Shown here one piece after another: positions 9,407-44,114 of a stretch of 57,940 bases of DNA. Positions within the stretch are counted from its first letter, which is position 1; the number at the start of each line of letters is the position of its first letter. Under the pieces are notes generated by a model, which was not told the origin of the DNA, did not search any database, and was given only the letters and a program-made list of their open reading frames with translations. The stretch is from a virus (lineage: Duplodnaviria > Caudoviricetes), in the IMG/VR virus record IMGVR_UViG_3300031951_000177, positions 1 through 57,940 of that record. One strand, given 5' to 3'. The position numbers and the translations under genes are program-made.

Positions 9407-9447
9407 ATCACATTGCTGTTGACAGCACTTCACAACTGTGATGTAAT
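9407..9447 (+). promoter_or_regulatory. Early promoter 2 with two operator sites
   Basis: TTGACA(9419)-17 nt-TGTAAT; operators at 9407 and 9429. Confidence 0.8.
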
Positions 9448-10823: not shown

Positions 10824-11303
10824 ATGAACGAGGCTCTCATCAACGCCATCGAGCTCGCAGCCGTGGCCCACGATGGCCAGGTCGACGGCGCCGGCAGGCC
10901 GTACATCCTGCACTGCCTGGCCGTGCTGCGCACGGTGGCCAAGAAGCTGCCAAACAACATTGACGCCCAGGTGGCCGCTGTGCTGCACGACGTGCTCGAG
11001 GACACCAGCATCAGGGCGCCAAGCCTGCTGATCCACGGCGTCAGCTACCGCGCCGTCAGCCTGATCGAGGCCGTCACCAGGAAGCCCGACGAGGACTACG
11101 AGTCGTTCATCGACCGCGTGGCCGACACGGGCCCTGTCGCGATTGTGATCAAGCTCGCCGACCTCGAGCACAACCTGTCGCGCATCGACGGCCTGCCGGC
11201 TGCACGCCGCGCCAAGCTCGAGCCCCGCTACCAGGCTGCAAAAAAGAAGTTGACCGCTGCACTCAAGTATCACAATGGTGTTGCTCACACTTCACAACTG
11301 TGA
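10824..11303 (+). CDS. HD-domain small alarmone hydrolase (RelA/SpoT hydrolase or Mesh1-like)
   Basis: AHDGQVDGAGRPYILHCLAV, AAVLHDVLEDT, IKLADLEHN. Confidence 0.88.
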   Translation: MNEALINAIELAAVAHDGQVDGAGRPYILHCLAVLRTVAKKLPNNIDAQVAAVLHDVLEDTSIRAPSLLIHGVSYRAVSLIEAVTRKPDEDYESFIDRVADTGPVAIVIKLADLEHNLSRIDGLPAARRAKLEPRYQAAKKKLTAALKYHNGVAHTSQL

Positions 11304-20515: not shown

Positions 20516-23500
20516 TCAGTCTCGCTCCTCGCCGTCAATCGTGAGACCGGCCCTGAGCCGGTCTCTCTTTTCCTGCTGCAGCTCGATCTGGCGCTCGGCA
20601 TTCTCCGAGCTGATCGCGCCCTTGTTTTCCAAGCGGCGGATGCTGCGGATGCTGGCCTCGATGTCCCGGATGAGCTTGTTCTCCTGCGACTGCCGGATCT
20701 TCTCAGACAGCTCCAGGTCGATGGGCCTGGCCTTGATGCCGACGGTCTGCATGGCAGAGTAGGCAAGCGACACCGGCTGGCCCTGCTTGTCCACGCCGGT
20801 GTACTCGGCGATGCCAAGGTCCAGGGGTTTGCCCACTTGGTTGGCGATCACGTTCATCGCCCGCTCGAAGTGATTGTTGCCCACCGCGACCGCGGGAGAG
20901 AACTGCTTCCACGCCCAGTCGGCGCGCTTGGCCGCGGCCTCCGCGTCGGTGTCTGCAGCGGTCACGATGTCCTTGCCTCGGAACGTGTCCTTGTTGGCCA
21001 GCATCGCGTAGGCGGTGGTCAGGATCGGGTTGTTCGGCGTGATGGGTGCGATCAGCGGCACGCCGCCGGCGTTGTTGACCGCGTCGAACAGGTCGCCGCC
21101 CGGGAAGATCCGGCTCACGTCCAGGAACACGGGCAGGCCCGTCGCCTCGTCCATGCCCAGGCGGATGGACTTGTAGGTCCCCAGCGTCAGGCTGGCGCCC
21201 TTCATCCACTCAGGCAGGTTCTTGCGCTCGTCGGCCTCCAGGGCCTTGGCCTGGGCCGCAAAGTCCTCGTCAGTGAAGCGGCGCTTGATCAGCTCCCACC
21301 ACTCCTCGTCCTCGCCCGCCCCTGCGGCGATCGCGTACATGGCCGCGTTGATCGTGTACAGCGCCGCGGCCGGGGCAGCGTACCGCCAGGGGTAAGTCAG
21401 CGCCGTCTCGGCCATCGCCGGGATCGCCTTGTAGGTGTAGGCAAAGAACGGCAGGGCGAAGTCTCGGATGCGCCTGGCGTTCTTCGGCAGGTCGTCGTAG
21501 GTGAAGATGAACTTCTGGGCGTAGTCGACAGACTCCGCCGGTGTCAGGCCCTTCGTGCGCGCCTCGCGATAGATCAGGTAGCGGAAGAACAGATCCTCGG
21601 CCTCGTAGGCCTTGCCCATGGGCTTGCGCAGCCAGAACGACAGCGCATTCCACACGCCCTCCACCGCCTTGCCCGTCGGGCTCTCCGTCTTGGCGGCCAG
21701 CACCTTGAGCTGGTCCGGCAGGAGTTGGGTCATCTCGGCCTGGGTCATGGTGCCCAGCCACAGGCCGGCGTCCTTCGCCTCCTGCAGCATCGGCGCGTTC
21801 TTCACGATGTCGCGAGTGGTGGCGATGTACTTGTTGGCGTCCCAGTAGGACACGCCAGCGAAGTGCGCCATGGTCACGTTGGACATGATGTTGTTGGCGT
21901 GGCTGACCGGGTTGAGCACGGTCTTGCCTTCCTTCCACATGCTCATGCCTTTGAGGTACATCTTCAGCACCTCGCTCTGCATCGAGTCGTCGAAGGCAGT
22001 CAGGTGATCCAGTACCTCTTGGGGAACCCACATGCCGGCCAGCTTGCCGTACCGCTTGGCGTAGGTGTCCTCGACGTTGGTGCGCGGCACCTGCACGAAG
22101 CCTTCCTTCTCCTTCTTGCTGGCCACGGTGTCGGCGATGTTCTCGTACAGCCGGCCCAGCGAGATGTCGCGCTGGCTCTTGTTGTAGCCCATGACGAACC
22201 GGAACATGGAGTCCCGGATCTCGCCCATGTCGTCGCGCTCCTGGCGGGTGTAGTCGCGCCAGACCGTGATCTCGGTGTCGGTGTCGGGGTTGAAGTTAGG
22301 GTCGCGCTCCTCCCAGCCCTCGGCCAGCCAGGACTCGAGCTCCTCGACGGGGATGGTCTGGAACAGGCCACGGCCCTTCAGGCTGGAGCCGCCGATGCCC
22401 TGCATGGTCTTCTTGCGGCCAAGCAGCGCCTTGGCCGCCTTGACCCACCCATTGGCCTCGCTCTTGAGCTTGGACTCGTAGAAGCGCGGCAGGTACTTGC
22501 CGTCCCACCGGCCGGCCGCCTCGGGCGTCAGCATGCCCAGGCGCACCAGCTCCGCCGTCTGCTCGGACATGATCGACTGCATGCTGGCCGCCAGCTCGAG
22601 CACGCGCTTGGGCGGCTTGGCGCCACGCTTGAGCTCGCCCTCGATGACGTCGCTGATCATCTCGCGCTCTTGCTGCGGCAGCTCCTGCAGCTTGGTGGCC
22701 ACGTCCACCGTCAGCTCCTGGGCCTTGGAGATCTCCATCTTCATCTGCCGCATGGCACGCGACAGGTCAGTGCTGATGGGCTTGAGCGCCATCTTGTCTA
22801 GCACCAGGTTGGCCACGTCGGCCGCGTAGCGGTAGGCCTTGGCGCCGGCACCGAAGGTGAAGTTGCCCAGGTCGTCGCGTCCCAGGAACCAGGACTGCTT
22901 GCTGCGCGATCCAGCGCGCTGGCTGTAGCGGATGTCGGGGTTCTCGGGGTCAAACTCACCGCTGTTGCCGATGGCGGACTTAATCTGGTTCGATGAGAAG
23001 ACGCCGAGGTTCTTTATCTCTTCGTCCTCCTGAAGCTCCTGAACGTAGAACCCGTCGAAGTTGTTCTTCTTGATCCACTCAATCGCCTCTGGGCTCTCGA
23101 TCACGCGGTAGTCGCCGGCGTGGATCATCTCGAGGATGTCGCTTGCACCAGACGCCTCGTCTGGTGCGTCCTCGGCCAATTGCACGGCACTGGGCGGCTT
23201 AAAGCCAATGCTCTTGAGGTGATCGGCAAGAGCCTGCCTGTGCTCCTTGATTTCGTAGTCGAATGGGTTCTCTGCCTTGACGTAGACGGGGATGACGTTG
23301 AGCCCCTGGAAGAGGTCAGGTCCCCCCATCAGATCTGGCGAGAACGGCACACCAGGGAAGCGCTTGCCGAAGATCTTGGGCTTGGCAATGTCCTCGGCCG
23401 CATCGGGGTCGGGTGACACATAGATCGCTCCGCCAACTCCGATTCTGAACACGCCACCCTCGAGCGGGTTGTCGGTGGCGTGGTACATCACCTTTGGCTT

Positions 23501-23971
23501 CTTCGACCCATCGCTGAAGGGGAACTTGGTTGGCGTTCCACCCGACTCAAGCTCGGCAATCCTTTCGCGCGCCTTCTCGTTTTCTATTTTCAATGAGGCA
23601 ATCAAAGACTTTTGCTTCTCGATCTTGGGCCCCCACCAGTCGGCGCGATCGGGATCCTCCTTGAACCGCTCCTCATAGTCCTTCAGCTCGTTTTCGGCAT
23701 ACGGCAAGGAATCCATCTCGCGCTTGAGACTTGCAATCTCCAAGGCGCGGGCCTGATCAATAGTCCTTCCTGGCTTCTCAAGCACCTTGCTGTTGCCGAA
23801 CCATCGCTTGAACTTGGGCGTCTCAGTCTGAGCACGTCGGCTGAACATCGGGCCGCCCGCGCCCTCGATTGCATCCACACCGTTCAAGGCGAGGAAGGCC
23901 TTCATCTCGGCCATCCCCTTGATGGTGACCTCGCCTCCCGCGGTCTTGAACGTGTAGGTGCAATCAGCCAT
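20516..23971 (-). CDS. Large polyvalent ejection-type protein 2 (about 1151 aa) with an ADP-ribosyltransferase-like (ART-PolyVal) module
   Basis: AGGAG RBS + ATG 23971 (MADCTY). TPKFKRWFGNSKV...VMYHAT...IYVSPDP...VIPVYVKAENPFD...FDGF...VFSSNQIKSAIGNSGEFDPENPDIRYS, then a helical C-terminal region typical of podovirus injected proteins. Confidence 0.85.
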   Translation of the reverse strand: MADCTYTFKTAGGEVTIKGMAEMKAFLALNGVDAIEGAGGPMFSRRAQTETPKFKRWFGNSKVLEKPGRTIDQARALEIASLKREMDSLPYAENELKDYEERFKEDPDRADWWGPKIEKQKSLIASLKIENEKARERIAELESGGTPTKFPFSDGSKKPKVMYHATDNPLEGGVFRIGVGGAIYVSPDPDAAEDIAKPKIFGKRFPGVPFSPDLMGGPDLFQGLNVIPVYVKAENPFDYEIKEHRQALADHLKSIGFKPPSAVQLAEDAPDEASGASDILEMIHAGDYRVIESPEAIEWIKKNNFDGFYVQELQEDEEIKNLGVFSSNQIKSAIGNSGEFDPENPDIRYSQRAGSRSKQSWFLGRDDLGNFTFGAGAKAYRYAADVANLVLDKMALKPISTDLSRAMRQMKMEISKAQELTVDVATKLQELPQQEREMISDVIEGELKRGAKPPKRVLELAASMQSIMSEQTAELVRLGMLTPEAAGRWDGKYLPRFYESKLKSEANGWVKAAKALLGRKKTMQGIGGSSLKGRGLFQTIPVEELESWLAEGWEERDPNFNPDTDTEITVWRDYTRQERDDMGEIRDSMFRFVMGYNKSQRDISLGRLYENIADTVASKKEKEGFVQVPRTNVEDTYAKRYGKLAGMWVPQEVLDHLTAFDDSMQSEVLKMYLKGMSMWKEGKTVLNPVSHANNIMSNVTMAHFAGVSYWDANKYIATTRDIVKNAPMLQEAKDAGLWLGTMTQAEMTQLLPDQLKVLAAKTESPTGKAVEGVWNALSFWLRKPMGKAYEAEDLFFRYLIYREARTKGLTPAESVDYAQKFIFTYDDLPKNARRIRDFALPFFAYTYKAIPAMAETALTYPWRYAAPAAALYTINAAMYAIAAGAGEDEEWWELIKRRFTDEDFAAQAKALEADERKNLPEWMKGASLTLGTYKSIRLGMDEATGLPVFLDVSRIFPGGDLFDAVNNAGGVPLIAPITPNNPILTTAYAMLANKDTFRGKDIVTAADTDAEAAAKRADWAWKQFSPAVAVGNNHFERAMNVIANQVGKPLDLGIAEYTGVDKQGQPVSLAYSAMQTVGIKARPIDLELSEKIRQSQENKLIRDIEASIRSIRRLENKGAISSENAERQIELQQEKRDRLRAGLTIDGEERD

Positions 23972-24455
23972 TGCCCAGCTCCTGGTCAATCAGCAGCATG
24001 CCTGCCTTGTCGCCGCTCACCAGCCCCAGGCGCGCCAGTAGGTCGCCGTACTCGCCGACGCTCTTGCGCTGAACTTCGAGGAACTGCAGCAGGAACTGCT
24101 GGGTCGTCACGCACTTGCACTCGCGATACCACTTCTCGTAGTCGCGCATGAGCTGCAGCTCGGTCTCGTAGCCCAGTTCGATGGCGTCGACGATGTCGGT
24201 GGCCACCTCGGTGCAAGCCTCAAGCGCCGGCACCTTCGCGCTGGTGCCGCGGTCGTTCATGTAGTCGGCAATGAGCTGGTAGTGCTTGAGCTCGTCAGAG
24301 CTCTCGCCGGCAAAGAACTTCTGCGTGCCGAAGAACCCGACGCGCTGCATCTGGTTGGCGACGTGCTTGTACAGGTGCGAGGCGTAGAGCTCAGCGTGGA
24401 CCGCCTTGTTCAGCATGTCCTCGGTGGGCTTGTCGAGCAGATTGGAAACAGGCAT
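23964..24455 (-). CDS. Ferritin-like protein
   Basis: 163 aa; ELYASHLY, ESSDELKH, YMNDRG, YETELQL, EVQRKSVGEYGD match ferritin ferroxidase helices; GAGG RBS. Confidence 0.9.
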   Translation of the reverse strand: MPVSNLLDKPTEDMLNKAVHAELYASHLYKHVANQMQRVGFFGTQKFFAGESSDELKHYQLIADYMNDRGTSAKVPALEACTEVATDIVDAIELGYETELQLMRDYEKWYRECKCVTTQQFLLQFLEVQRKSVGEYGDLLARLGLVSGDKAGMLLIDQELGNG

Positions 24456-24464
24456 TGTGATACC

Positions 24465-27400
24465 TCACTTGCAGTTGATCTTCACCAGGCCGGCGTCGTC
24501 GAGCCGCTCCAGGATGTCCATGAACTCTTGGTCGATGCGGCGGATTGTCTCAGCCATCGGGTGCGCGTCAACCCGCTCGAGCGCACGCACGCGCCCCAGG
24601 CCTCGGGCGTCTTGCAGATCGCGGAACAGGCCGGCCACTTCCTTGTCCTCAGCACGGGCGCGCTGACTGAATGCGGGCGCATCCTGCCAGCCCTGCGGCG
24701 ACGAGGTCGGCTTGTAGTAGGTGCCGATCCAGCCCATCAGGTTGACGTCGGTCTTGACCGTGCGCGCAGAGATCATCTCCGCCAGCTTGGGCCACACCCC
24801 AGGCCAAGACACGAAGTTGCCATTGAGCTTGACGTCAGCCTTAGGATCTCCAGCCTTGCGACCAGTCAGCGCCTGCTTGGCCAGGCCGGGGTCCAGGTAC
24901 AGCAGGTTGCCGTCGTTGATGCGTTTCATCAGCACCTGCTCGTTCGGCTTGCCGCCGGAGATCGACACGCCCTTGGCGTAGATCGACATCACCGCGCCGG
25001 TCGGATCGGTGTTGTCCACCGACACCTTGATCGGGACGATCAGCGCGCCCTTGTCGCTGGTGATCGGCAGCACCAGCTCGAACTCGCGGGGGTTGCCGTC
25101 CTTCGACTTCAGCACCATGGCCGGGCGGTAGATGCCCTCGATGAGCTGCTTGGGCGTGATGTCGGGAAGCTCGTCCGCGTGTCCTTTTTCTGCCTTGGTC
25201 CTGATGAAGACCTTGTTCACGATGCTGGTGGCGATGTCGAAGTCCTGCGTGCGAGCGCCCAGCATGTTGAGCACATGGGGCAGCCGGCCGATGGTGAGCT
25301 TCGGCAACTGGCGTCCCTGCTGCGCCTCGCGGATGTAGCGCTGCAAGTTGATCGAGGCGCCCTCGATCTCTTTGTTCAGGGCGCTCTGCGGCGACACCTT
25401 CGGCAGTTGACGGTTGCTGAATGCTGGCGCTTCAGCTCGAAGCTCGCGAGCCAGCTCGCCGCGGTACATGACCTTGTCGGACTGCCACACCGGGTTGCCA
25501 GCCAGGCGCTCGTAGACGTCCGGCATGCCGCGAGAGATGAGCTCCGCCCAACGCTTGCCGGACACCTGCCCGGCCGGCAGCATCTTGTTGGCTGAGATCT
25601 TCTCAGCGTCGCTCAGCACTCGCTCACGGGCCGGTGCAACAGCCTCGCCTGCCATGCGGCTGCGAGCGCCGAGCTGCTCGACGGGCACCGCATGCCGACC
25701 CAGCAGCACTGCATTGCCTGACGGCCCGGCGTCGCGCACCATGTAGCCGTCGAAGCCTGCGTCGATGACGGCCGACTCGAAGTCGTTGAAGGACTCGTTG
25801 TCGCGGCGCAGACGCAGCGTGTCCTCGTCGACGTCGTACAGGTTCTGCAGATTGACGCGGTGAGCCTGGCCCCCCACGCCGGCCTCAGGATTGATGCCGG
25901 TGCCGCGATCGATGTAGAAGTTGATGCGCTGCTTCAGGCGCGGATCTGCGCCCTGCAAGCGCGTCATCTCGGCACCGCGCAGGCCGGTGCCATACATCAC
26001 GCTGTCGAGGGTCGTGCGGGGCTGGGTGCTGTAGTGATAGCCGACCGCGGAGGCGGCGCCCTCTCGAGGGGTGCCGTAGGAAGGGGTTACCGCTTGAACG
26101 TCTTGCGGCCCCACTCCTCGATCGCGTCCACCGCCGGCTGCATCGGATCCGCCTCGGTTGCTGAACTGGATTCGGCCGGGGTCTCCCCACTGGTACTTTT
26201 CGGCGAACTGCTCGAAGACTCGCTGGACCCGAGGCGCGAGAACACTTCTGGCCCAGTCGAGAACATCGGATCGTCCCGCGGCACTAATCCTTTGTATGTA
26301 GCCTTGCCCATTCGGGTTTACCTCCCAGTCATTGGTTGGCATGTCGCCGCTGGAGGCGAACACGCGATAGTCGAAGTCCGGCAGCACCCCCTCCGCGACC
26401 TTCACGATCTCTGATTGGAGTACGTCATTTGTGATGATACCGAAGTTCACGGCCCTAATACCAGTGGGAGAACTGATCAGCGCAAACTGGTTCTGCCAGT
26501 TGACCTTGCCGTTGTCGTCCATCCACTTGCCGATTGCCGCCTCGAGATCTCGCGTTTCTACCGGGTTCAGTGCCCGGCCGATGTCGATGTCCAGGCCGTT
26601 GGACTGGCGCTTCGTGCCGGCGTAGAAAGGACGGTGCCAGCCCACCCCCTCCTGCCTGGCCACCAGGCCGGCCACGGACGCATAGACGTTGAGCAGCTCG
26701 GCCTGTGCCGGGTCGACGTTGCTCTTGCCCGCATCGCCTCCGGCCGGCGCCATAGCCACGCGCTTCTGCGTGCTGGGTGACACCTCGCCCTGCCACACGC
26801 CCGGGCGCATCAGGTCGCTGGGCTCCGTCAGAAGGCCGAGCATTACGGCCAGCATGTCGCTGCCGTTCTCGTCGTAGAAGGCCCGCTGCACGGCCTGATG
26901 GAACTCCACCTGCTGGGCATACGGTGCGGTGTGGATCCCCTCTAGAACGCCCGTGCTGCGGCCTGGCCGAGCCTCGAACGAAAGCTGACCGACGTGACGT
27001 CCGACTCCATCAGCAAAGTCGAACTTGGCCTGCTCGGTATCCTCCTTGGTGGGCACATGCTCCGTCGCATGCTTGAGCCAGTTGTCGCGGTGCTTCTGCG
27101 CGTCGATGATGACGCGGACCTTCTTGCCCTTCGCGTCGCGCTCAAACCTGATCCAGCCATTCTTTTCGCTGCTGGCCTCAGTCCTCTCCTTGACGCCTTT
27201 GTTCTCCATGCGGGCCTTCATCGCGACCCAGATGGCGGCCTGCACTTGCTGCGGCTCCCATCCCATCTCCTGCGCAATGCGGTTGGTCTCGTTCTCCATG
27301 AAGGCGTACTGCGTCGGCGTGGGTGCGTCGTTGGCGTACTCGGCCGCACGCATCATCCACATGTCGATCGTCGCGCCCTGCTTGCCGGCAGTGCTGGTGT

Positions 27401-30400
27401 CGATCTCGCGCAGCAGGTTGAAGAAGAAGTTGCCCGTCTTCTCGCCAGACCAGAAGGCGTCAACGTCGGCCATTGCCTGAGTCGCCTTCTTGTCCTGCAC
27501 CCCGGTCTTGACGCTGATCGGCTGGCCAGCCTTGTACTGTGCCCAGGCTCGCAGCGCAAACGTCGAGTTACTGTCGACACGCGCCTGCGGGCTGTAGATG
27601 GCCAGCAGGGCAACGAACTTGCGCGCCTCCTGCACGTTGCCGCCAGTCATGCGCAAGATCGCCAGGCTGCTGTTCTCGTACCAGTAGCGACCGCGCTCGC
27701 CCTCTTTGGTCAACTTGAGAAGGATGGCGCGCAGCTCACCAATCTTTTCAGGGGTGTTGTACTTTTCGGGTGCGCCGACGTACTTTCCGTCCCGCATTGG
27801 CAGCTCGTCGAGCACAACGCCAGCCCGGCTGTATGCCGTCTTGCGGCCCTCAAGCGCAGCCCTCACACGCGGTGCGGCCGACGTGGTGAACACAATTCCG
27901 TCTTTGGTGTTGCGACCCTTCACGTCATCAGGGATGCTGGCGCGGATAGCCTCGTGGCTTCCATAGACCATGATCGTCCCGTCCCGCATAGTGCGGACAT
28001 CAAAGTCACCCACGCGCTCGGTGCCCTCGCGGGGCTTTAACTCTTGTGAAGTTTTTGATACACTTGACTCGTCAGGAGATCCTATGAAAGTCCCCTCTTC
28101 CTTCCCAGCCGGCTGCGAGTTCGTTGCCTCGTTCTCCGGCGACGAGTTCGTCAAGTTCCCCGACGGCAAGCTCTTCAAGCTCGCCGACTCCGGCGAAGAG
28201 CTCGTGCCAGCCAGCTCGCTGCCTGCACGCGGCGCGCCGATGTCGGAGGCTGCCTTCCTGTCCTGCGCCGAGGGCTGCCGCAAGTTCGCCGCCGAGAAAG
28301 CTGCGTCGTAAAGACCACGCATCGCGTCGTAGATCTCGCCGCGCAGCGGTGAACCCTCAGGCTGCTCACGGGCGGCCTCGTACAACTTGTGGCCCTGGCC
28401 ATCCTTGGCGGCCAGCATGGCGGGCGTATTGATCTGGATCTCACCCACCGTGCCGTTGGGCATTCTGATGTTGATCAGCACGTCGGCATAGCCGCCGAAC
28501 TTTTGGCGGTCTGACGACTCCACCCCCTCGCCAGTCACGCCAGCACCGGCGCGGTCCTTGATGCGGACCACGTCGAACTCCTTGCGGATCTCGTCGATGA
28601 TCGCGGGCGCGTCGGCGTAGCTGTCGACCACGATGGTCGAGCGCAGCAGGTCCTTGATGTTGTCGACCTGGTAGTTCTCCTCAAGCGCCAGCTTCTCGGC
28701 CGCACGCTTGATGCCCTTGATGGGCGCCAGCATCTGGCCGGTGGCGCCGGTGCGCGCTGCGATGTTCAGGATCTTCTGGTCGTACTCCGGCTTGACCTGC
28801 TCGGCCGCTTCCATCCTGGGCTTCAGCAAGATCTCTGCGCGCAGGCGATCCTGCGGCGAAACGGAGACTGGCTGCCGCTCCTTGAAGTACTTCTCGACGA
28901 ACCCGTCGGCCGCCGCCACTGTCTCTGCCGGCACCGACTCGGACAGCAGCGAAGCCATGTCGCGCTGATTGTTGAAGTTGTCGGCCTTCGGGTTGTAGTC
29001 GCTGACCTTCACAGGCTCGCGGGCCCGGCCGCTGAACATGAACTCGGACTTCTGTCCGTAGGTTGGGTTCTTGGCCAGCACCAGGGGGCCGATTTGGATG
29101 ACCTCCTGCGCAGCGACGACGGGCTCCATCGTGGAGCGGTCGTAGAAGTAGCTGTGCCGCTCGGGGTCCATGCCGACCTGGATCCAGGACTTGGAGTTGA
29201 GAGCAGCCTGCGCAAACGCGACCGCCTGCTTCTCGGTCATCTGTTTCCACTTGCCCTCGATGCGAGCGAACGGAGACTTAGCCGAGTCGCCCTTGGCGAT
29301 CTCAAGCGCCTTCTCCTGCTCGCGAGGGGTCATCGCAAACTCGGCATCGGTCACGGCCGACACGTTTCCGTACAAGGTCTTCTTGTCCTTGTTGGCCGGG
29401 TGGATCGAGTTGACCCACACGCCGTGGTCCTTGTACGCCGGAATATCCAGGCGCAGCCCCACGCGCTCGCCGTTGGTCAGCTCTTTGTCGGCGATGCCGT
29501 AGCGCGGCAGCTTGGCCGACGTCAGGGCGCGCTCGGCGTCAGCCTGAGTTGCAGGCTCAGGCACGAACGAATACGGCGCCACGGGCTTGTATTCGTCCAC
29601 CATGCGGGCGTAGTCCTCGCGAGTGATCGCGCCTTGGGACAGCTTGTTCGCCCCCTCGGTCAGCTCCGGCACCCGCTTGGTCACGTCCTTGAAGTCCATG
29701 CTCAGGCGGTTGACGGCAACGCGCTGAGACGCCATGGCCATGCCCTCGAGCTGCACGTCGGGCTGCAGGCCCTGCGCCTTCATCGCGTCGGCGTAGGCGG
29801 TCGTCAACAGGTCGCGAGCCTTCGCGACGTCGGAGATGTACTTGTTGACGAAGTCCTCGCCGTACTGCTTCTTCGCGCCGGTGATGATGTCGCCGAGCTT
29901 GGCGATGATGGTCTTGGCCACCTCGCCAAACTCCTTGTTGCCCATCTTCGTGCGCAGCTCTTGCCAGAAGTCCTCGCGCTTGCTGATGGCCTGCACCATC
30001 ATGGCCGGGGCCTCCTCCTCGAACTTGTCCGGCGTGTAGCTGAACTCGTCGAGGAACTTGTCCTTGCGGTCCTGGCGGAACAGATCCAGCAGCGCGGTGT
30101 TCAGGCTTTTGCGCTGAGCCTCCGGCAGGCCGTGATAGGCCTCGTGCACCGTGATGGCCAGGGGCGCATCGTCCGCATCGTCGGCGACGAACAGGTGCTT
30201 GCCGCCGACGCTGTTGATCATGCCGTTGGGCAGAGCGCCTGCACCGGTCTCCTGGTGGACTACCGTCAAGGTCTTGCCCATCAGGCGCGCCACCGCACTG
30301 GCCAGGCGCTGCGAGTCGTTCAGGTCGGTCGACTTGACCGGCGAGAACGTGACGCCGAGCTGCTGGTCGAGCTGCTTGTTGAGCGAGCTCAGCTCTCGCA

Positions 30401-32675
30401 GCGGCGCCGTGGGCGCGAGCTTCAGTCCGGCACGTTCAGTATCAGACAGTTCAACCGGGGCGCCGGTTGCGGCGGGGATGCCACCAGCGCCGCTTTGTGC
30501 GGCACCTGCCATTTGGCCTGCTGGTGTTGCTCCTTGCGTTTGGCCTTGCTGGGCTTGAGGGGTTTGCGTGCCAAGGTTGGTCTCCTTTTGGTATCCGACA
30601 ATCTGAAAGCGCCCGTTGCCCATGGGCTCGACACGCCAGTCGTGAGTCTGCCTGGTGTCGATGACCGTGCTGGCAGTGGCCATCGCCTGCTGAGCGTCCT
30701 GCTCGTTTGCATAGCCAGTCTTTGCGCGGCCAGTCCAAGTCAGCGGCTCACCGCCTACGGCTACGCCGGCAGGCTGTTGGCCGGCCGCACCTCCAGCAGG
30801 TACAGCCTGTCGATCATTGACTCCAGGGATCGCGAGAGCTCCGCCTCCGTACCCGGTGGCACCTGCAGCGCCAGGTCCTGCAGCTCCCATGCTTCCGTCA
30901 ATGAGACCGCCCCCTGCCTCACCCCCTGCTCCAGCCAATCCTCCAGGTAAGCCTGTTGTGCCGACATTCGCGCCTCCCATGCGCAGCTTGTCCAGACCGA
31001 ACTGCTCCTCGGTCGACGGGTTGATCTCGGGCAGGATAGGAGCCGCGTTCGGCAGCGGCACCTCGATGTCCACCAGGCCGGCCTGCTTGGTCGGCGCGTT
31101 GGGCGGGGTGAAGTTCTTGACGGTCGCGGCGGGTGAGATCAGGTTTGAGGTGCCGGCTTCCGTGCGCAGCATGTCAATGCTGATAGCTTGCGATGCCTCT
31201 GGCCCAAGGTTCTCAAACGCACGCCCAGCCGAGTCGATCTCCCGCGCAATCTGGCGCTCAGGTTCGTAGTAGCCGGTCGCTGCGGCGGCAACCTGAGGCG
31301 CGCTCATCAGCTTGCCCGTCACGCCGCCAACAACTCCGGCCTCGGCCAGGCCCTTGGTCAGCTCAATGTCCTTGCCCTGGAAGTACTTGTCGAGCACGTT
31401 GCCGCCGAACTGCGCAGCCACTTCTTCGATCGCGTTGGTCAGCCCGTTGGCAGTGATTGCACCGCCGGCCTGCAGAGCGCGCTGGCCAGCCACCGCCAGC
31501 ACCGTGTTGGCCTTGGCCGGAGACATCCCCTTGAGCACGTCGCCGACTTTGTCGAACACACCAAGCGGCAGCTTCTCGGATATGTACTCCACCCCGCCCT
31601 TGGCGAGAGCCACGCGGGAGTCGTCGCCTTGAGCGAAGCTCTGGCCAGCCGCCGTGCCTGCCATGCCAGGCAGCAAAGCTGCGCGCAGCGGCGGCACAAA
31701 CGCAGCCAGCAGAGACTGCGCGATCTGCGGCGAGTTGGCGGCGAGCTTCGACATCAACCACGGCGCAAACTCTTGGCGCGCAATGGCCTCGTCCATCTCT
31801 TGCTTGCCAACCTTTGGCATGAAGTCGCTGGCAGACTTGGCCAGGTACTCAGTGCCAAATGCGGTGGGAACAGGGGGGAGATCTTGCATTCCCAGTGCGC
31901 GCAGCACCGGGTTGATGGCAGTCTTGTTGAAGGCGTCTGCGGCGACCGAGGGGATGTTGATCACGCCGCTGATCAAGCCCGCGGAGCCGGCAGCAATGGA
32001 ACCCAGCAGCGGATTCTCTTCGGCAAACTTGCGGCGCCCTTCGGATTCCGCCATTTGGCTGGTAACGCCACTGATCTCGTCTACGCGCAGACCCTCATCG
32101 GCCACGCGCACGCCCTGCGCCAGCATGCGGCGGTCGGCGATCTGCTTAGCCGAGCGGCCATCCATGATGTCGCCAAAGCCAGGAGTGACATCAGGAATTG
32201 AGACGGGCGACGCTGCGCCGGCACCAAGCCTGGGCGGCGGGACATTGCCGGGTCCACGCGGAGCATCCAGCAATCTTTGAGCTCGCCCCTCCTGGTCCAA
32301 GCTGATGCGCTTGTTTTCTGCCTGCGCCTCAGACAGGATCTGACGCGCCGCCCGGCCCAGCACATCTGTGCGATTGTCGGCCAGGGTAGTCAACAGGCGC
32401 ATGCGATCTTCAGGCGCGGCCTTGCCGATGATGTCGCGCCGAACGCCGGCCACATAGTCCTGGTTCAGCATCGGATCGAACCCGGGCGTGCGAGGCACTT
32501 CGCCAGGCTGATCCATCACGCTGCGGATCAGCGGCCCGCCGGTAGGCGCGCCCTGCATGGCCGTGGCCATGTCGGAGTAGTCCGTCGCATCGGCGGACTC
32601 CACCTCCTCAATCGGGATGAAGCGGAAGGCTTTCTGCTCTTCCTTCTCGAACTCGGAGATGGGTACGAATCGCAT
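24465..32675 (-). CDS. Giant polyvalent ejection-type protein 1 (about 2736 aa): metallopeptidase, RelA/SpoT-like synthetase, HhH-glycosylase-like, ART-like and MuF-C/PBECR nuclease-like modules
   Basis: HEAYH (about 30140); IKGIKRAAEK...DLLRSTIVV...GYADV...EIQINT...HKLYE (about 28330-28830); YWYE...AIYSPQ...TIDMWMMR...QVQAAIW (about 27220-27700); YHYS...FYI...GFDGY (about 25700-26045); IGRLPHVL...H...IYRPAMVLKS...SIYAK (about 24870-25310). Confidence 0.9.
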   Translation of the reverse strand: MRFVPISEFEKEEQKAFRFIPIEEVESADATDYSDMATAMQGAPTGGPLIRSVMDQPGEVPRTPGFDPMLNQDYVAGVRRDIIGKAAPEDRMRLLTTLADNRTDVLGRAARQILSEAQAENKRISLDQEGRAQRLLDAPRGPGNVPPPRLGAGAASPVSIPDVTPGFGDIMDGRSAKQIADRRMLAQGVRVADEGLRVDEISGVTSQMAESEGRRKFAEENPLLGSIAAGSAGLISGVINIPSVAADAFNKTAINPVLRALGMQDLPPVPTAFGTEYLAKSASDFMPKVGKQEMDEAIARQEFAPWLMSKLAANSPQIAQSLLAAFVPPLRAALLPGMAGTAAGQSFAQGDDSRVALAKGGVEYISEKLPLGVFDKVGDVLKGMSPAKANTVLAVAGQRALQAGGAITANGLTNAIEEVAAQFGGNVLDKYFQGKDIELTKGLAEAGVVGGVTGKLMSAPQVAAAATGYYEPERQIAREIDSAGRAFENLGPEASQAISIDMLRTEAGTSNLISPAATVKNFTPPNAPTKQAGLVDIEVPLPNAAPILPEINPSTEEQFGLDKLRMGGANVGTTGLPGGLAGAGGEAGGGLIDGSMGAAGPGAAGATGYGGGALAIPGVNDRQAVPAGGAAGQQPAGVAVGGEPLTWTGRAKTGYANEQDAQQAMATASTVIDTRQTHDWRVEPMGNGRFQIVGYQKETNLGTQTPQAQQGQTQGATPAGQMAGAAQSGAGGIPAATGAPVELSDTERAGLKLAPTAPLRELSSLNKQLDQQLGVTFSPVKSTDLNDSQRLASAVARLMGKTLTVVHQETGAGALPNGMINSVGGKHLFVADDADDAPLAITVHEAYHGLPEAQRKSLNTALLDLFRQDRKDKFLDEFSYTPDKFEEEAPAMMVQAISKREDFWQELRTKMGNKEFGEVAKTIIAKLGDIITGAKKQYGEDFVNKYISDVAKARDLLTTAYADAMKAQGLQPDVQLEGMAMASQRVAVNRLSMDFKDVTKRVPELTEGANKLSQGAITREDYARMVDEYKPVAPYSFVPEPATQADAERALTSAKLPRYGIADKELTNGERVGLRLDIPAYKDHGVWVNSIHPANKDKKTLYGNVSAVTDAEFAMTPREQEKALEIAKGDSAKSPFARIEGKWKQMTEKQAVAFAQAALNSKSWIQVGMDPERHSYFYDRSTMEPVVAAQEVIQIGPLVLAKNPTYGQKSEFMFSGRAREPVKVSDYNPKADNFNNQRDMASLLSESVPAETVAAADGFVEKYFKERQPVSVSPQDRLRAEILLKPRMEAAEQVKPEYDQKILNIAARTGATGQMLAPIKGIKRAAEKLALEENYQVDNIKDLLRSTIVVDSYADAPAIIDEIRKEFDVVRIKDRAGAGVTGEGVESSDRQKFGGYADVLINIRMPNGTVGEIQINTPAMLAAKDGQGHKLYEAAREQPEGSPLRGEIYDAMRGLYDAAFSAANLRQPSAQDRKAASDIGAPRAGSELAGTSSSPESASLKSLPSGNLTNSSPENEATNSQPAGKEEGTFIGSPDESSVSKTSQELKPREGTERVGDFDVRTMRDGTIMVYGSHEAIRASIPDDVKGRNTKDGIVFTTSAAPRVRAALEGRKTAYSRAGVVLDELPMRDGKYVGAPEKYNTPEKIGELRAILLKLTKEGERGRYWYENSSLAILRMTGGNVQEARKFVALLAIYSPQARVDSNSTFALRAWAQYKAGQPISVKTGVQDKKATQAMADVDAFWSGEKTGNFFFNLLREIDTSTAGKQGATIDMWMMRAAEYANDAPTPTQYAFMENETNRIAQEMGWEPQQVQAAIWVAMKARMENKGVKERTEASSEKNGWIRFERDAKGKKVRVIIDAQKHRDNWLKHATEHVPTKEDTEQAKFDFADGVGRHVGQLSFEARPGRSTGVLEGIHTAPYAQQVEFHQAVQRAFYDENGSDMLAVMLGLLTEPSDLMRPGVWQGEVSPSTQKRVAMAPAGGDAGKSNVDPAQAELLNVYASVAGLVARQEGVGWHRPFYAGTKRQSNGLDIDIGRALNPVETRDLEAAIGKWMDDNGKVNWQNQFALISSPTGIRAVNFGIITNDVLQSEIVKVAEGVLPDFDYRVFASSGDMPTNDWEVNPNGQGYIQRISAAGRSDVLDWARSVLAPRVQRVFEQFAEKYQWGDPGRIQFSNRGGSDAAGGGRDRGVGPQDVQAVTPSYGTPREGAASAVGYHYSTQPRTTLDSVMYGTGLRGAEMTRLQGADPRLKQRINFYIDRGTGINPEAGVGGQAHRVNLQNLYDVDEDTLRLRRDNESFNDFESAVIDAGFDGYMVRDAGPSGNAVLLGRHAVPVEQLGARSRMAGEAVAPARERVLSDAEKISANKMLPAGQVSGKRWAELISRGMPDVYERLAGNPVWQSDKVMYRGELARELRAEAPAFSNRQLPKVSPQSALNKEIEGASINLQRYIREAQQGRQLPKLTIGRLPHVLNMLGARTQDFDIATSIVNKVFIRTKAEKGHADELPDITPKQLIEGIYRPAMVLKSKDGNPREFELVLPITSDKGALIVPIKVSVDNTDPTGAVMSIYAKGVSISGGKPNEQVLMKRINDGNLLYLDPGLAKQALTGRKAGDPKADVKLNGNFVSWPGVWPKLAEMISARTVKTDVNLMGWIGTYYKPTSSPQGWQDAPAFSQRARAEDKEVAGLFRDLQDARGLGRVRALERVDAHPMAETIRRIDQEFMDILERLDDAGLVKINCK
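26087..26311 (-). CDS. Candidate nested gene (+1 frame) inside giant protein 1
   Basis: GGAGGT-7 nt-ATG; 74 aa MGKATYKGLVPRDDPMFSTGPEVF...AVDAIEEWGRKTFKR; host-frame codon usage is locally atypical. Confidence 0.5.
   Translation of the reverse strand: MGKATYKGLVPRDDPMFSTGPEVFSRLGSSESSSSSPKSTSGETPAESSSATEADPMQPAVDAIEEWGRKTFKR
28036..28078 (+). promoter_or_regulatory. Internal antisense promoter and RBS
   Basis: TTTAAC(28036)-17 nt-TACACT(28059), AGGAG(28074), in an AT-rich patch inside a GC-rich gene. Confidence 0.65.
28084..28311 (+). CDS. Candidate nested antisense gene (75 aa) next to the RelA/SpoT module; putative immunity protein
   Basis: Promoter + AGGAG + ATG; MKVPSSFPAGCEFVASFSGDEFVKFPDGKLFKLADSGEELVP...; the host frame here is a Ser-rich low-complexity linker. 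Confidence 0.65.
   Translation: MKVPSSFPAGCEFVASFSGDEFVKFPDGKLFKLADSGEELVPASSLPARGAPMSEAAFLSCAEGCRKFAAEKAAS
30422..30574 (-). CDS. Weak candidate nested gene (+1 frame, basic, 50 aa)
   Basis: AAGGAG-7 nt-TTG; MARKPLKPSKAKRKEQHQQAKWQVPHK. Confidence 0.3.
   Translation of the reverse strand: MARKPLKPSKAKRKEQHQQAKWQVPHKAALVASPPQPAPRLNCLILNVPD
30761..30967 (-). CDS. Candidate nested gene (+1 frame, acidic helical, 68 aa)
   Basis: GGAGG-5 nt-ATG; MSAQQAYLEDWLEQGVRQGAVSLTEAWELQDL...; GC3 bias shifts to this frame while the host frame uses TTA/GGA/GCA codons. Confidence 0.62.
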   Translation of the reverse strand: MSAQQAYLEDWLEQGVRQGAVSLTEAWELQDLALQVPPGTEAELSRSLESMIDRLYLLEVRPANSLPA

Positions 32676-32677
32676 GC

Positions 32678-33862
32678 TTACTTCCCGACGTAGCCGATGA
32701 CCTTGCCGCTCTTGTCCTTCACTTCCCAACCCCGACCAGACACAAGCGCGCCGATCGAGGAGCCGGCCGGGGCGCCCTGCACTTGGGCGATTTGCGGCGG
32801 ACTCTTGGCGTCAGAGGGGGCCGGGGCCGCTGGAGCCGCCGCGGGAGCGCCGCTGGATTCTCCACTACCAGGCCGCTTGAACTGCTTCATCGCCGCATTC
32901 AATTCCGTCAGCTCGTTCAGGAACGGCTGAATCTCTTCAAGCCTTGTCTTGGCCTTTGCGTCACCGGCTTCAGCACGCTTGCGCAGGGATGCGAGCGAGG
33001 CGTTGACCTCGTTCTTGGTGACCCCAAGGGTCAGCGCAATGTCGTCCTTGCTGGCGTTGATCTGACGTTGAATGTCCGCGGTGGTCGCTGGCTTCTTGTT
33101 CGGGTCAGAAGGGTTCGCCGAGCGCTCAGCGCGTCTTTCACGGGTGCGCGCATCTGCCTCCATGATGCCCAGGCGGCGATCGGTCTGATCGCCTCGACGG
33201 CGGCCCTCATCTGCGCGCTGCCTGTTCCCTTCTTCGATCAGGTCCAGCCGGCGATTTGTCGCGGCCTGCTCAGCGGCGCGCTGCTTCTCTCTGTTCTCCT
33301 CGGCCACCTCGCGCAGCGTGTCCGCCTTGGCCTTCGTGTAGGCATCGAGCACAGACGAGTGCGCACCCATTCCCATGGCCGCGGTCACGCGGTCCTCGGC
33401 AGCGATCATCCGCGGGTCGCGGGTCGACTCTGCTGCACCCTCGATCAGGCCTGACTTGCGGTAGCTCTCGCGCAGCGCCGGATCCTTGCGGATCAGGTCG
33501 AGCATCTGCTCCTTGCTGAGCGCGATGTCACCCTCCTCGCCGGCCTTGGCAGACATCTCACCCAGCTTGGTGGCGTCAGAGTCCATGCGCGCAGTGCGGC
33601 GCTCGGTCCCCATCTGCGTGGCGCGCTGCTCGACCTGCGCGGTTTCAGCAGTCACGCGCTGCTTCAGCGTCTCGGCCTTCTTCTCCTCGCGCTCGGCGCG
33701 GATCCTGTCAGCCTCCTCGGCCCGCTTGATGGCGTTGGCCTCGCGCCGCTCCTCGTCCTCGCGCCTGCGCTGGTCCTCGATGTCCTTCAGCATGTAGCTG
33801 CCAAAGGTGGTCCCGGCATCTGCGATGCCTTTGCCGATCCCGGCCCAGATCAGTCCGCTCAT
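32678..33862 (-). CDS. Putative ejection/internal virion protein (charged coiled coil)
   Basis: 394 aa; position between the pilot-like genes and the giant protein. Confidence 0.8.
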   Translation of the reverse strand: MSGLIWAGIGKGIADAGTTFGSYMLKDIEDQRRREDEERREANAIKRAEEADRIRAEREEKKAETLKQRVTAETAQVEQRATQMGTERRTARMDSDATKLGEMSAKAGEEGDIALSKEQMLDLIRKDPALRESYRKSGLIEGAAESTRDPRMIAAEDRVTAAMGMGAHSSVLDAYTKAKADTLREVAEENREKQRAAEQAATNRRLDLIEEGNRQRADEGRRRGDQTDRRLGIMEADARTRERRAERSANPSDPNKKPATTADIQRQINASKDDIALTLGVTKNEVNASLASLRKRAEAGDAKAKTRLEEIQPFLNELTELNAAMKQFKRPGSGESSGAPAAAPAAPAPSDAKSPPQIAQVQGAPAGSSIGALVSGRGWEVKDKSGKVIGYVGK

Positions 33863-41297: not shown

Positions 41298-44114
41298 TTA
41301 GGCTTCAAGCGCCGCGACACGGGCGCGGAGGGATTGGAGTTCAGCGACGATGTTGGCAATGAACTCGGCAGAGCCGTACTCCATCGCTTGCATCACGGGC
41401 TTACCGTCTGCGTCTACCGCGTCTTTTTCACCAACCACGGTGCTGGGACTGACTTTTTGAACCTCATGCGCGATGAAGCCAACACCCTTGCTGCCATCAG
41501 TCTTCCAATTCCATGTCTTGGGCTGGAGCGCGTCAATGAACGCGCCGGAGTTCGCCAGAGGTTGTTGGTTGTCTTTGAGTCGGTAGTCGGAGGAAGTGCT
41601 AAACGTTGTCGTGGTCCCGGTTGTAGAAACACTACCTACGTTGCCATTTCCGTTGCGAAAAACAATGTGGTTTGTAGCGGTTGTGACATTTGTTTCTGTG
41701 TTCAGAATTGTTGCGCCACCGGCTTTATAAAAATTGCTGCCGCCGTTTGGTGTGGTCTGCGTCCCCACCAGCAAATCACCCCCGCTCGTGATGCGGGCGC
41801 GTTCGGTGTTGTTGGTGCCAAAAGACAAGAACCCGTTACCGATATTCCACAAATACGAGTTTTCTGATATCTGTCCAAGATTCAGGTAGTAGCTCGCATC
41901 TGACGTATCCCAAATGCCCAGAATCGGTGCAGCAGACGCCTGAATAGTCATGCCAGTGCCGCTGCCACTCAGCCCCGTAACTTTGTTCGTCGTGCCGCCA
42001 AGGGCAAGGTTCCCACTCGCATCCAGCGTCATTGCCTGCGTGAAGCTGATCGCGTTGCCTGCGGTGCCGCCTGCTGACACATACCAAGCGTGAGCGCTAC
42101 CGGCATTTGCGCCGGTCATTTCGTATCTAGCAGCGCCGACGGAGCTTGCTGCGTAAATCCAGTTGGTGCCGTTGTCGTAAGCACCATGAACAAGCGCCGA
42201 GCTAGTGCTCCCAGTAGCGTTGGTAAACAGCGCACCGCCCCCGAGGTAGCCTATTTGAATTGCTCTGCGCGATGCCGCAGTGCTCCACGCACTCGGCGTC
42301 ACCCCCAGGCCGAGGTTGCCGGAGGAGTCGAGACGCATGCGTTCGGTGCTGTTTGTCCAAAACAGCATTGGGTAAGCGCCACCAGAAAATAAATTTGCTG
42401 AATAGGCTGGCGCTGAAAAATACGTACCCGCTGAATTTTCACGACCTATATAAAGATCGCCTCCAGTGTTTTGCAAGAACAACACTACTTCATTTGTGCC
42501 TGTGCTTGAAGTGATGTTTTGTTTTGCATTGGCTGCGACTACCGACAATCTGTTGGTTGGCGAACTCGTCCCAATCCCCAGACCTGTGGAGGTCAGGCGC
42601 ATTTGTTCGGAGCCGCCAGCAAACCACCTTTGAAAAGTCGTAGCAGAAGAACCAAAAAAAATAGGAATTGCTGGAAGGCCACCAGCGCCGTTTCCAATAT
42701 ATAAGCCGGAACCATCTTCGCCAATCAGCATCTCGCCAGTTGGCCCAATAAGGTAACTTGCGCTTCCACCATCAAAAGTTAAGGTGTTGCTGCCGTTAAA
42801 CGTCAGCGCACTCCCGCTCGTCAGCACCTTGCTGCCGTTGAGATAGGTCACGCCGTTGGCGGTGAGGCTCGCAGCCGTCGTCGAAATGCCCAAGCCAGGC
42901 AGGCGCAGTGACGTGTTGGAGCTGTTGCCGATCGTGATCTCGTTGCTCACGCCGGCCGCAGACGCTGCAGCGTTGTAGCCGATGATGATGTTGTTCGACC
43001 CGGTCGTCAGGTCGTTGGTGCCGCTGTACCCGGCCTGGTAGCCGAGGGCAGTGTTGTTGGCTCCCGAGGTCACCGCCGCCAGTGCGTAGTAGCCCACCGC
43101 AGCGTTGTTGCTGCTGCCGGTGGTGGTCAGCAGGGCAGACGTGCCAATGGCCACGTTGTTCGCACCGCTGGCGTTGTCCGTGCCGGCGGTCACGCCGATG
43201 TAGACGTTGCTCCCGCCCGTAGTGACGTTGTCGCCGGCCTGGACGCCCACGGCGACGTTGCTGCTGCTTGTGGCGCTGTCCAGTGCCCTGTAGCCCACCG
43301 CAGTGTTGTTGGCGCCGGTGGTGTTGGCCCTCAGGGCCTCGAAGCCGAAAGCGGTGTTGCGGATGCCCGTGGTGGTGGTAGCTGCGCTGCCGCCAACCGC
43401 CGTCAGCCACGGCGTGGCCGTCTGCACAATGATCGGACCCCAGGAGCTGCTGGTGCCGTTGGTCGTCAGGAACTTGCCAGCGTTGCCGGTCTGTGACGGC
43501 AGAACCTTGGTCTCTGCCAAGGACGTGATCCACGCCGGGTTCGCGTAACTGCCAATCGTGTAGACGCCATTGGTGACGGTGTCGGCGTTGCCCGTCAGGG
43601 CGCCGACGAACGACGTCGACGTCACCGAGGTCAGGCCGGCCAGCGTCGTGGCCGTGGCACCCAGGCTGATGCTGGTAGAGCCCACCGTCAGCGAGCTGTT
43701 GGTTAGGCTGGCGTTGCCGATGTTGCTCAGCGTGTTCGACGATCCGCTGATGGTCTTGTTGGTCAGCGTCTGCGCAACATCAAGACCCGCAATGGTCATG
43801 TTCGCATCGGGCACCGTCAGCACGCGGGTCGCGCCGGCAGTGATGCCGCTGGCCTCAAATCGGAACTTGCGTGTGCTGTCGGCGTTGTCTTCCACCACCA
43901 GGTTCGTGTCGGTGATGGTCAGCGGTGGCAGCACGCTGACGGCCTCCAGCGCCGTGCCAGAGGAGTTGACCGTGACGAGCTTGGTCGCATTGCCCGACAG
44001 AGTCGGCAGCTTGTCGAAACCAGTCGAGATCGAAGCAAGCTCGGCCCGCATGGAGGCCGAAGTTGCCGGCGCGCCGGTCGCGGGGAATGCTCCGCCGTTG
44101 TAGTACGGGTTCAT
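41298..44114 (-). CDS. Tail fibre with C-terminal S74 intramolecular chaperone
   Basis: NTAxGxxAL repeats, ERMRLDSSGNLGLG-type repeats, TSSDYRLKDN...GFIAHEVQ...ELQSLRARVAALE. Confidence 0.92.
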   Translation of the reverse strand: MNPYYNGGAFPATGAPATSASMRAELASISTGFDKLPTLSGNATKLVTVNSSGTALEAVSVLPPLTITDTNLVVEDNADSTRKFRFEASGITAGATRVLTVPDANMTIAGLDVAQTLTNKTISGSSNTLSNIGNASLTNSSLTVGSTSISLGATATTLAGLTSVTSTSFVGALTGNADTVTNGVYTIGSYANPAWITSLAETKVLPSQTGNAGKFLTTNGTSSSWGPIIVQTATPWLTAVGGSAATTTTGIRNTAFGFEALRANTTGANNTAVGYRALDSATSSSNVAVGVQAGDNVTTGGSNVYIGVTAGTDNASGANNVAIGTSALLTTTGSSNNAAVGYYALAAVTSGANNTALGYQAGYSGTNDLTTGSNNIIIGYNAAASAAGVSNEITIGNSSNTSLRLPGLGISTTAASLTANGVTYLNGSKVLTSGSALTFNGSNTLTFDGGSASYLIGPTGEMLIGEDGSGLYIGNGAGGLPAIPIFFGSSATTFQRWFAGGSEQMRLTSTGLGIGTSSPTNRLSVVAANAKQNITSSTGTNEVVLFLQNTGGDLYIGRENSAGTYFSAPAYSANLFSGGAYPMLFWTNSTERMRLDSSGNLGLGVTPSAWSTAASRRAIQIGYLGGGALFTNATGSTSSALVHGAYDNGTNWIYAASSVGAARYEMTGANAGSAHAWYVSAGGTAGNAISFTQAMTLDASGNLALGGTTNKVTGLSGSGTGMTIQASAAPILGIWDTSDASYYLNLGQISENSYLWNIGNGFLSFGTNNTERARITSGGDLLVGTQTTPNGGSNFYKAGGATILNTETNVTTATNHIVFRNGNGNVGSVSTTGTTTTFSTSSDYRLKDNQQPLANSGAFIDALQPKTWNWKTDGSKGVGFIAHEVQKVSPSTVVGEKDAVDADGKPVMQAMEYGSAEFIANIVAELQSLRARVAALEA

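Follow-up and report, generated by a model that had tools for sequence, protein, structure and literature searches.

An antisense gene with conserved signals lies inside a giant phage gene next to a Tas1-like module and is a candidate immunity gene

Toxins of the (p)ppApp synthetase class are known to be encoded beside their immunity genes. As described in the available text of PMC11782079, Tas1 (Apk1) is a (p)ppApp synthetase effector of Pseudomonas type VI secretion (T6SS) with an adjacent gene for its immunity protein Tis1 (Protein Data Bank, PDB, entry 6OX6), and in the toxSAS pair FaRel-AT2faRel, whose genes are likewise adjacent, the (pp)pApp-producing enzyme is neutralized by a small Tis1-like domain. 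Adjacent immunity genes are also given for Apk2 toxins in the accessible parts of PMC12226406 and PMC12691689, and in the MuF-Apk2 polymorphic toxins of temperate phages (PMC12226406, PMC5576092), apk2 is followed by the immunity genes iapK and aph1 (PMC12226406). Genes embedded antisense within other genes have been described from E. coli O157:H7 and Pseudomonas aeruginosa (PMC9927249, PMC8850804); the P. aeruginosa overlapping pair is presented as evolutionarily novel (PMC8850804), and a linked function is mentioned in neither abstract. Here, we analyzed the virus record IMGVR_UViG_3300031951_000177 (Caudoviricetes), the whole 57,940 bp of which we call the window, where an open reading frame (ORF) of 75 amino acids (aa) lies on the + strand wholly inside the gene of a giant virion protein, right after a Tas1-like module of that protein. 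This ORF is very probably a real protein-coding gene because its signals are conserved, a confident fold is obtained in the antisense frame only, and free-standing copies exist with a low ratio of non-synonymous to synonymous substitution rates (dN/dS). Based on its linkage to the module and on the rank of its fold match, we propose, with moderate confidence, that it encodes the cognate immunity protein of the adjacent Tas1-like toxin domain.

The small gene occupies positions 28084..28311 of the + strand (75 aa plus stop, containing FVASFSGDEFVKFPDGKLFKLADSGEEL) and is housed in a Ser/Pro/Gly/Asn/Thr-rich linker of the host frame (28086..28310, - strand, residues 1474-1548), which reads ...GTSSSPESASLKSLPSGNLTNSSPE... 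in that frame. The giant gene around it (24465-32729, - strand) encodes 2754 aa from a TTG or 2736 aa from the first ATG, and its product contains a DUF7178 domain, a weak MuF_C match, and the Tas1-like module, a putative (p)ppApp synthetase of the RelA/SpoT fold (28290..28958, - strand, residues 1258-1480 counted from the TTG). On the + strand, the ATG of the small gene is preceded at 5 nt by the Shine-Dalgarno (SD) sequence AGGAG (28074..28078) and further upstream by an extended -10 element, TGATACACT (TGnTAnnnT, 28056..28064, with TACACT at 28059-28064 after the TG at 28056-57), in a patch where the GC content dips to 0.51-0.54 (28000-28149) versus ~0.64 around it. A sequence-only reading of this DNA had pointed to the linker, the 75-aa ORF, AGGAG, TACACT, a -35 hexamer TTTAAC (28036..28041, + strand, 17-nt spacer to TACACT), a 9-mer in that spacer, and the AT-rich patch, and all of them are found where it placed them. 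It had also warned, correctly as judged from the coordinates, that the third codon positions of the antisense and host frames coincide, so that neither the openness of the antisense ORF nor its GC content at third positions proves anything. Long antisense ORFs in the frame of the small gene are frequent in the window and common in GC-rich DNA, and the composite of -10, SD, ATG, and an ORF of at least 50 aa occurs 2 times in the window versus 1.3 in shuffles. Judged from the window genome alone, the antisense composite signal is no more than chance. A simple sigma-70 promoter scan of the window did not call the TTTAAC/TACACT pair, no terminator-like site was found directly after the small ORF, and Rfam returned sub-threshold rows only (the best, radC, with 23.2 bits versus a gathering score of 40).

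As a query, the small protein retrieved 11 called proteins and 45 clusters (50% identity) at E values of at most 1e-3, most of them aligned from residue 1. Three repeat proteins (P0027, P0050, and P0056) seem to match incidentally through a 'PDG' beta-hairpin and were excluded from the alignments. Small-gene loci were found by scans in genomes (3), viral contigs (22), and metagenome contigs (19); with the partial matches L054 and L056 excluded, 43 loci were analyzed (the window and 42 others), 33 of which are distinct. One of the relatives, L015/L027, is the prophage of Hydrogenophaga intermedia S1. In 26 distinct loci, the ORF is embedded, i.e., it lies wholly inside an opposite-strand gene, with both frames open and a host-frame ORF of at least 1000 aa, while in 7/33 it stands free of any long opposite-strand ORF. 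No family for the small protein was found in Pfam, PHROGs, or NCBIfam, ESM Atlas gave no usable match, and tblastn of the small protein against 50,697 GenBank phage records gave none. At the nucleotide level, ~100 nt running from the -10 through the first third of the ORF are near-invariant even in one phage with flanks of ~55% identity at the protein level; in the window, this block (28055..28170) covers the promoter, the SD, and the 5' third of the small gene, and it is also a junction of cassette recombination (see below). The start is ATG in 25/25 of the genome and viral-contig loci, which likewise retain an SD and a -10 box, though the identity of the small protein drops to 36%. In 17/18 distinct aligned loci, 4-8 nt separate an SD-like GGAG/GAGG from the ATG, and in L036 the distance is 11 nt.

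The promoter was compared over 35 embedded loci (33 distinct; L087 and L090, which have no ATG at the start given by the hidden Markov model, HMM, were dropped). TAnnnT stands exactly 19 nt before the ATG in 30/33 of the distinct loci, against an in-phase background of 84/47,169 positions (0.18%); it lies at 22 nt in L020 and L075 and is absent from L062. Among the 30 aligned loci, the hexamer is preceded by TG (T 73%, G 83%), the A at its position 4 is conserved to 97%, and the G at -9 to 100%, with almost no information at the positions neighboring the conserved -10 and -9 bases. Two bases of the hexamer, the first T and the position-4 A, are at the same time wobble bases of the host frame, where the host codons are GTA/ATA/TTA and AGT/ATT/ACT/AAT and thus encode Val/Ile/Leu and Ser/Ile/Thr/Asn, and T is found on the + strand at only 9.5% of host wobble positions in these genes. 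Since the base is fixed while the host amino acid varies, selection acts on the DNA for a -10 box, and not on the host protein. The TTTAAC hexamer is not conserved among the relatives and is probably not a functional element; by its sequence, the promoter of the small gene is of the extended -10 type.

The spacer 9-mer TTGTGAAGT (28044..28052, + strand, equal to ACTTCACAA on the - strand) is a possible regulator site. ACTTCACAA occurs in 5 copies in the window versus 0.21 expected, with the four others on the + strand of the early region (5734-5742, 8790-8798, 9427-9435, and 11289-11297). These four are part of a ~21-nt repeat, ATTACATCACAGTTGTGAAGT (oriented like the - strand genes); the copies at 8790, 9427, and 11289 are followed at 25-35 nt by extended -10-like boxes of the TTGTGATAC type, and the copy at 5734 directly precedes an SD and an ATG. 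The extended -10 of the small gene resembles the TTGTGATAC-type boxes, and its promoter has only the 9-mer in common with the repeat. The 9-mer is probably a phage regulator site or an early-promoter element, and L019 is the only aligned relative that keeps it.

The free-standing copies allow the coding frame to be followed outside giant genes. In L013, a contig of a Burkholderiales metagenome-assembled genome (MAG), the small gene (6001-6225) lies between a tyrosine integrase gene (4531-5772) and a DUF3987 gene on the same strand and is a hypothetical protein in the NCBI database record; no homology to the phage loci is seen past its ORF borders, as shown for this one of the seven loci. The setting of the copy in L052 (333-557), with an integrase and DUF3987, is similar. 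We take both islands to be P4-like, and their copies of the small gene are candidates for orphan immunity or defense cargo. The free-standing copies of L038 and L044 are chromosomal, the one in L043 shares its strand with an LPD38 gene and is located downstream of it, and in L048 (1936-2460) the small domain is fused to a longer C-terminus. L048 and the proteins P0016 (198 aa) and P0038 (398 aa) are longer forms in which the small domain stands at the N-terminus or close to it and an unrelated extension makes up the C-terminal part. The dN/dS values of stand-alone pairs are 0.14 (14 synonymous and 8 non-synonymous changes), 0.05 (14 and 3), and 0.44, and on these substitution patterns the stand-alone homologs are under purifying selection. 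Within the embedded copies, the same test is weak, as the shared wobbles leave the antisense frame only slightly better conserved than the host frame (mean BLOSUM62 score 2.34 versus 1.90, identity 0.50 versus 0.46), and selection on the embedded frame is read from the stand-alone values together with the model confidence of the predicted fold.

For the antisense frame, AlphaFold2 (52-sequence alignment) gave a model of five beta-strands and a C-terminal helix with a mean predicted local distance difference test score (pLDDT) of 94.8 and a predicted template modeling score (pTM) of 0.82, whereas the host frame over the same bases gave a pLDDT of 57.0, a pTM of 0.16, and no residue above 70, from an alignment of 26 sequences and thus of a different depth. 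In a structural search other than Foldseek, the top match of the small-protein model among 48,161 chains is 6ox6_B, the Tas1 immunity chain (Z 4.8, root mean square deviation 3.5 A, 58/76 residues, 7% identity), at a Z score within 1 unit of the unrelated 2jlp_A (4.6) and 7zv6_B (4.1) and in a range (below 8) that can reflect a common arrangement only. A second structural look at the PDB had no 6OX6 among its rows, the best being Aichivirus 2A (Z 4.7). The fold match means little alone and gains weight because the toxin was identified independently.

This identification was based on a module profile, A3, built from 18 loci. Its sole significant match in the PDB is Tas1 (6ox6_A, the chain named Tas1 in the entry; E 9.7e-17, in two stretches, profile positions 51-221), and the housekeeping GTP pyrophosphokinase 3l9d reached only E 0.54; for this reason, the "RelA/SpoT-like" module is, by profile comparison, specifically Tas1/Apk-like. 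The match covers the conserved motifs K..R...K, D..R.T, GY.D, E.Q.N, and GHK.YE. The 18 module sequences share 26 invariant columns, including K81, R85, K89, D103, R106, G156, Y157, D159, E173, N177, H190, Y193, and E194, and these listed residues align with identical residues of Tas1. Among the 50,697 GenBank phage records, the module was matched in Bordetella phage PHB04 only (27% identity).

Module and small gene are genetically linked. In 25/26 distinct embedded loci, the module is found immediately upstream in the host frame, in a count for which the HMM was built from 18 of the same loci, which match by construction, and the stop of the small ORF falls within the last helix of the module, which in the window overlaps no more than the final 22 nt of the ORF. 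Starting from the toxin side, 34/56 module-bearing viral loci carry, just behind the module and antisense to it, a member of the small family, including every locus with a tblastn E value of at most 9e-32 and, in addition, the truncated L093. The exceptions to the linkage are L014 and the 7 stand-alone loci. The pair is also exchanged as a unit. In the mosaics L024/L025, the promoter-distal side matches L016 with 94-100% identity until about -29 relative to the ATG. The segment between -29 and about +1000, with the small gene and the module, matches L023 with 90-99% identity, and in the junction block L024/L025, L016, and L023 are all 93-97% identical. The breakpoints of L024 lie at -29..+70 and at about +915..+1100, where there is a second conserved junction. 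Because the mosaics break at junctions that flank the small gene and the module, the sequences indicate that toxin domain and small gene are exchanged together as a cassette.

Antisense ORFs of 80-88 aa were also observed after more distant Tas1-like modules (all on the - strand: L097, 3088-3354; L099, 2812-3054; L089/L094, 3061-3318), those of L097 and L099 being preceded by TGnTAnnnT, GGAGG, and ATG. They were considered as remote members of the small family and rejected (hhalign of the small-family profile A2 against the L099 ORF, probability 1.65%); they may represent other immunity families with the same layout.

Seen against these relatives, the hidden antisense gene of the sequence-only reading is upheld by the conserved start, SD, and -10, by a confident fold in the antisense frame only, and by the selected stand-alone homologs, and what had been called a RelA/SpoT-like neighbor is narrowed down to Tas1. 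The own promoter survives as an extended -10, without the -35 that had been paired with it and that is neither conserved nor called in the simple scan, whereas the idea that module and small gene are shuffled together finds its counterpart in L024, with breakpoints at the conserved block around the promoter and start of the small gene. The suggestion that immunity is written into the effector gene gains from the linkage counted from both sides and from the top rank of Tis1, albeit at a low Z score, and the immunity function itself stays a candidate. As to the checks that had been proposed, the small gene is present in all close relatives of the module and has no detectable counterpart in 22/56 module loci, the most distant ones; purifying selection is seen in the stand-alone copies (0.05-0.44), and within the embedded ones the antisense frame is slightly favored.

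If the small gene is an immunity gene, the following course of events can be envisaged. Host RNA polymerase would transcribe it from the extended -10 in front of it, in a direction opposed to the late operon, and the small protein would be supplied independently of late transcription, with translation from the canonical SD and ATG. The small beta-sheet-plus-helix protein would then act as the cognate immunity protein (antitoxin) of the neighboring domain, which we infer to be toxic, and probably bind it as Tis1 binds Tas1, occluding the pyrophosphate-acceptor site. Binding to the newly made or the injected giant protein would block (p)ppApp synthesis, so that the producing or lysogenic cell would keep its ATP pool and an injected effector would be switched off once phage genes are expressed. 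Since the toxin domain and the small gene physically overlap, they would travel as one in-frame cassette between the conserved junctions.

Several observations weigh against an immunity function or against the gene itself. Besides the unequal depths of the two AlphaFold2 alignments, the small margin between the frames in embedded copies, and the weak Z score of 6ox6_B, Foldseek against the PDB and BFVD returned nothing at E values of at most 1e-3 and 6OX6 was not among its matches, and the A2 profile matched no 6OX6 chain in the PDB at E values of at most 10, i.e., there is no sequence similarity to Tis1. The family is rare (1/401 genomes sampled from the order of genome G001). On the toxin side, the Pfam family RelA_SpoT (PF04607) stays below threshold (18.1 bits versus a cutoff of 27, residues 1338-1449), and 22/56 module loci, which are the most distant relatives and have other architectures, have no detectable member of the small family. 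In L014, a contig of a Gammaproteobacteria MAG, the small gene (6001-6261), with its signals present, is embedded in an ORF of 3028 aa, where a ParB-like (…DGHH…) domain directly precedes it in place of the Tas1-like module and LPD23 lies downstream, and a profile search of the L013 and L014 genomes, both MAGs, found no Tas1-like module. As Tis1-like domains are recognized by structure in the available text of PMC11782079, the missing sequence similarity does not exclude a Tis1 fold. The Pfam result, with sub-threshold RelA_SpoT matches at the same place in 5/10 relatives scanned, is a detection limit for a divergent branch and not a functional criterion. The L014 and L013 copies fit orphan immunity genes and fit equally well a function independent of the toxin. 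The latter would be expected if the small gene is expressed as an independent accessory gene (e.g., a moron, or a gene for superinfection exclusion, anti-defense, or regulation), for which a tolerant linker is a safe place and which is served by a host-type promoter. Such a role, which we regard as rather unlikely, would also cover the six other stand-alone loci without the module, a promoter that resembles the phage early promoters and has their 9-mer, the small-protein fold without a strong match, and the multi-domain forms P0016, P0038, and L048. It sits poorly with the tight adjacency to the module, with the presence of the small gene in all close module relatives, and with a top fold match that is the immunity protein of the very toxin which the module resembles; moreover, orphan immunity genes are usual in polymorphic-toxin systems.

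The remaining alternatives do without a functional antisense protein. The conserved element could be a host-frame peptide, such as a processing or docking motif, or a DNA site for recombination or regulation, with the ORF, SD, and -10 as by-products. Consistent with this, all embedded loci keep the host frame open and its phase intact, with indels that are multiples of three, the host-frame motif PSGN.TNSSP...QP.GN.SG.F is also conserved, the conserved block is a recombination junction, and such antisense ORFs are common in GC-rich DNA. Yet stand-alone copies exist outside giant genes with low dN/dS, the homology of L013 ends at the ORF borders, the -10 bases at host wobbles are kept while the host amino acids vary, and the antisense peptide has a confident fold where the host-frame peptide has none, which together make this possibility extremely improbable. 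A regulatory antisense RNA that acts on the giant late gene through transcriptional interference or by forming duplexes, with the ORF translated little or not at all, would agree with a conserved promoter head-on to the late operon and with the lack of a terminator-like site just after the ORF. We consider it very unlikely, given that it leaves the conserved SD and ATG, the protein-like substitutions, the fold, and the stand-alone coding homologs unexplained, and that no Rfam family was found at threshold.

As for the genomic context, the window is a complete-looking virus record with a late structural operon on the - strand. The ORF of the terminase large subunit (2-1321, - strand) runs off the record start, and the record is probably not truly linear but circularly permuted. 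The operon further includes genes for a portal-like/head-tail adaptor protein (55313-57511), the major head protein (48712-49743), and a tail fiber (41298-44114), all on the - strand. Judged by its size, its multiple domains (DUF7178, the weak MuF_C match, and the Tas1-like module), the LPD23 domain in the relative L014, and its place in a structural operon, the 2754-aa product is a large polyvalent virion protein as this class is understood in PMC5512222. Two genes downstream of it, separated by a 163-aa ORF (23964-24455), the gene at 20516-23989 (- strand) codes for 1157 aa with an ADP-ribosyltransferase domain, ART-PolyVal (PF18760); its product is, by domain content, a second polyvalent effector of the window. 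Within the giant gene, the segment 27660-27960, which lies 130-420 nt upstream of the small-gene ATG at the start of the next host domain, is 58-77% identical to L016, with flanks on either side of more than 90%, a pattern that we read as further mosaicism. No DNA similarity of the window to the 50,697 GenBank phage records was found.

In bacteria and phages, functional embedded antisense genes are a rarity and a matter of dispute, and the present case is unusually testable owing to its conserved signals, confident fold, free-standing homologs, and concrete candidate partner. An immunity function, if true, would enlarge the known gene architectures of (p)ppApp-synthetase toxins by a new one and would explain how a toxic domain can be shuffled within giant phage effectors without killing the producer. 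Since standard gene callers discard such ORFs as long as the giant gene is unbroken, the immunity or antitoxin partners that belong to internal toxin domains may be systematically overlooked, and the orphan copies in integrative islands suggest effector immunity as a form of phage defense. Tentatively, the layout may be general: antidotes of phage polyvalent effectors would be written on the opposite strand, with the disordered linker doubling as a separately promoted gene for a folded immunity protein, toxin and antidote would form an inseparable, in-frame, swappable cassette, free copies in toxin-less integrase-bearing islands and chromosomes would defend the host or a satellite against the injected effector, and other toxin domains may be organized likewise.

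Toxin-immunity pairs of this enzyme class and embedded antisense genes are both known; an immunity-type gene antisense inside the toxin gene would be new, as a literature search of the available texts turned up no description of an immunity gene that is antisense to, or embedded in, the gene of such a toxin. In the closest pair, Tas1-Tis1, toxin and small partner are genetically linked as they are here; Tas1, an ATP-depleting toxin, is the sole significant PDB relative of the module, and the small protein is of nearly the same size (75 aa versus the 76-residue aligned Tis1 chain). However, Tas1 is the C-terminus of a T6SS effector, whereas the module is an internal domain of a 2754-aa phage protein, and Tis1 is encoded downstream and co-oriented, whereas the partner described here is antisense, wholly inside the toxin gene, and under its own promoter. 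The MuF-Apk2 toxins share with the giant protein a phage capsid-associated carrier fused to an adenosine 3'-pyrophosphokinase toxin domain, and their small immunity protein acts by protein-protein interaction, as we propose here; the differences are that the toxin domain of the window lies mid-protein and that the candidate immunity gene is encoded within a linker by the other strand. A second, hydrolase-type immunity gene was not seen here, although no search was aimed at it. FaRel-AT2faRel is a chromosomal operon of separate co-oriented genes, unlike the present family, for which a Tis1-like fold is a candidate assignment, but multi-domain antitoxins exist there as well, comparable with the fused forms P0016, P0038, and L048. 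The large polyvalent proteins resemble the giant protein as multi-domain virion proteins whose effector domains include the RelA/SpoT type; the available text of PMC5512222, in which the terms 'antisense', 'overlapping', and 'opposite strand' do not occur, describes their architecture without an embedded partner gene. Finally, the antisense genes of E. coli and P. aeruginosa have in common with the small gene an ORF wholly inside an opposite-strand gene and promoter- and ribosome-binding-site-like signals, and the small gene differs from them in being conserved down to 36% identity, in occurring also as free-standing copies, and in having a candidate partner encoded right next to it.

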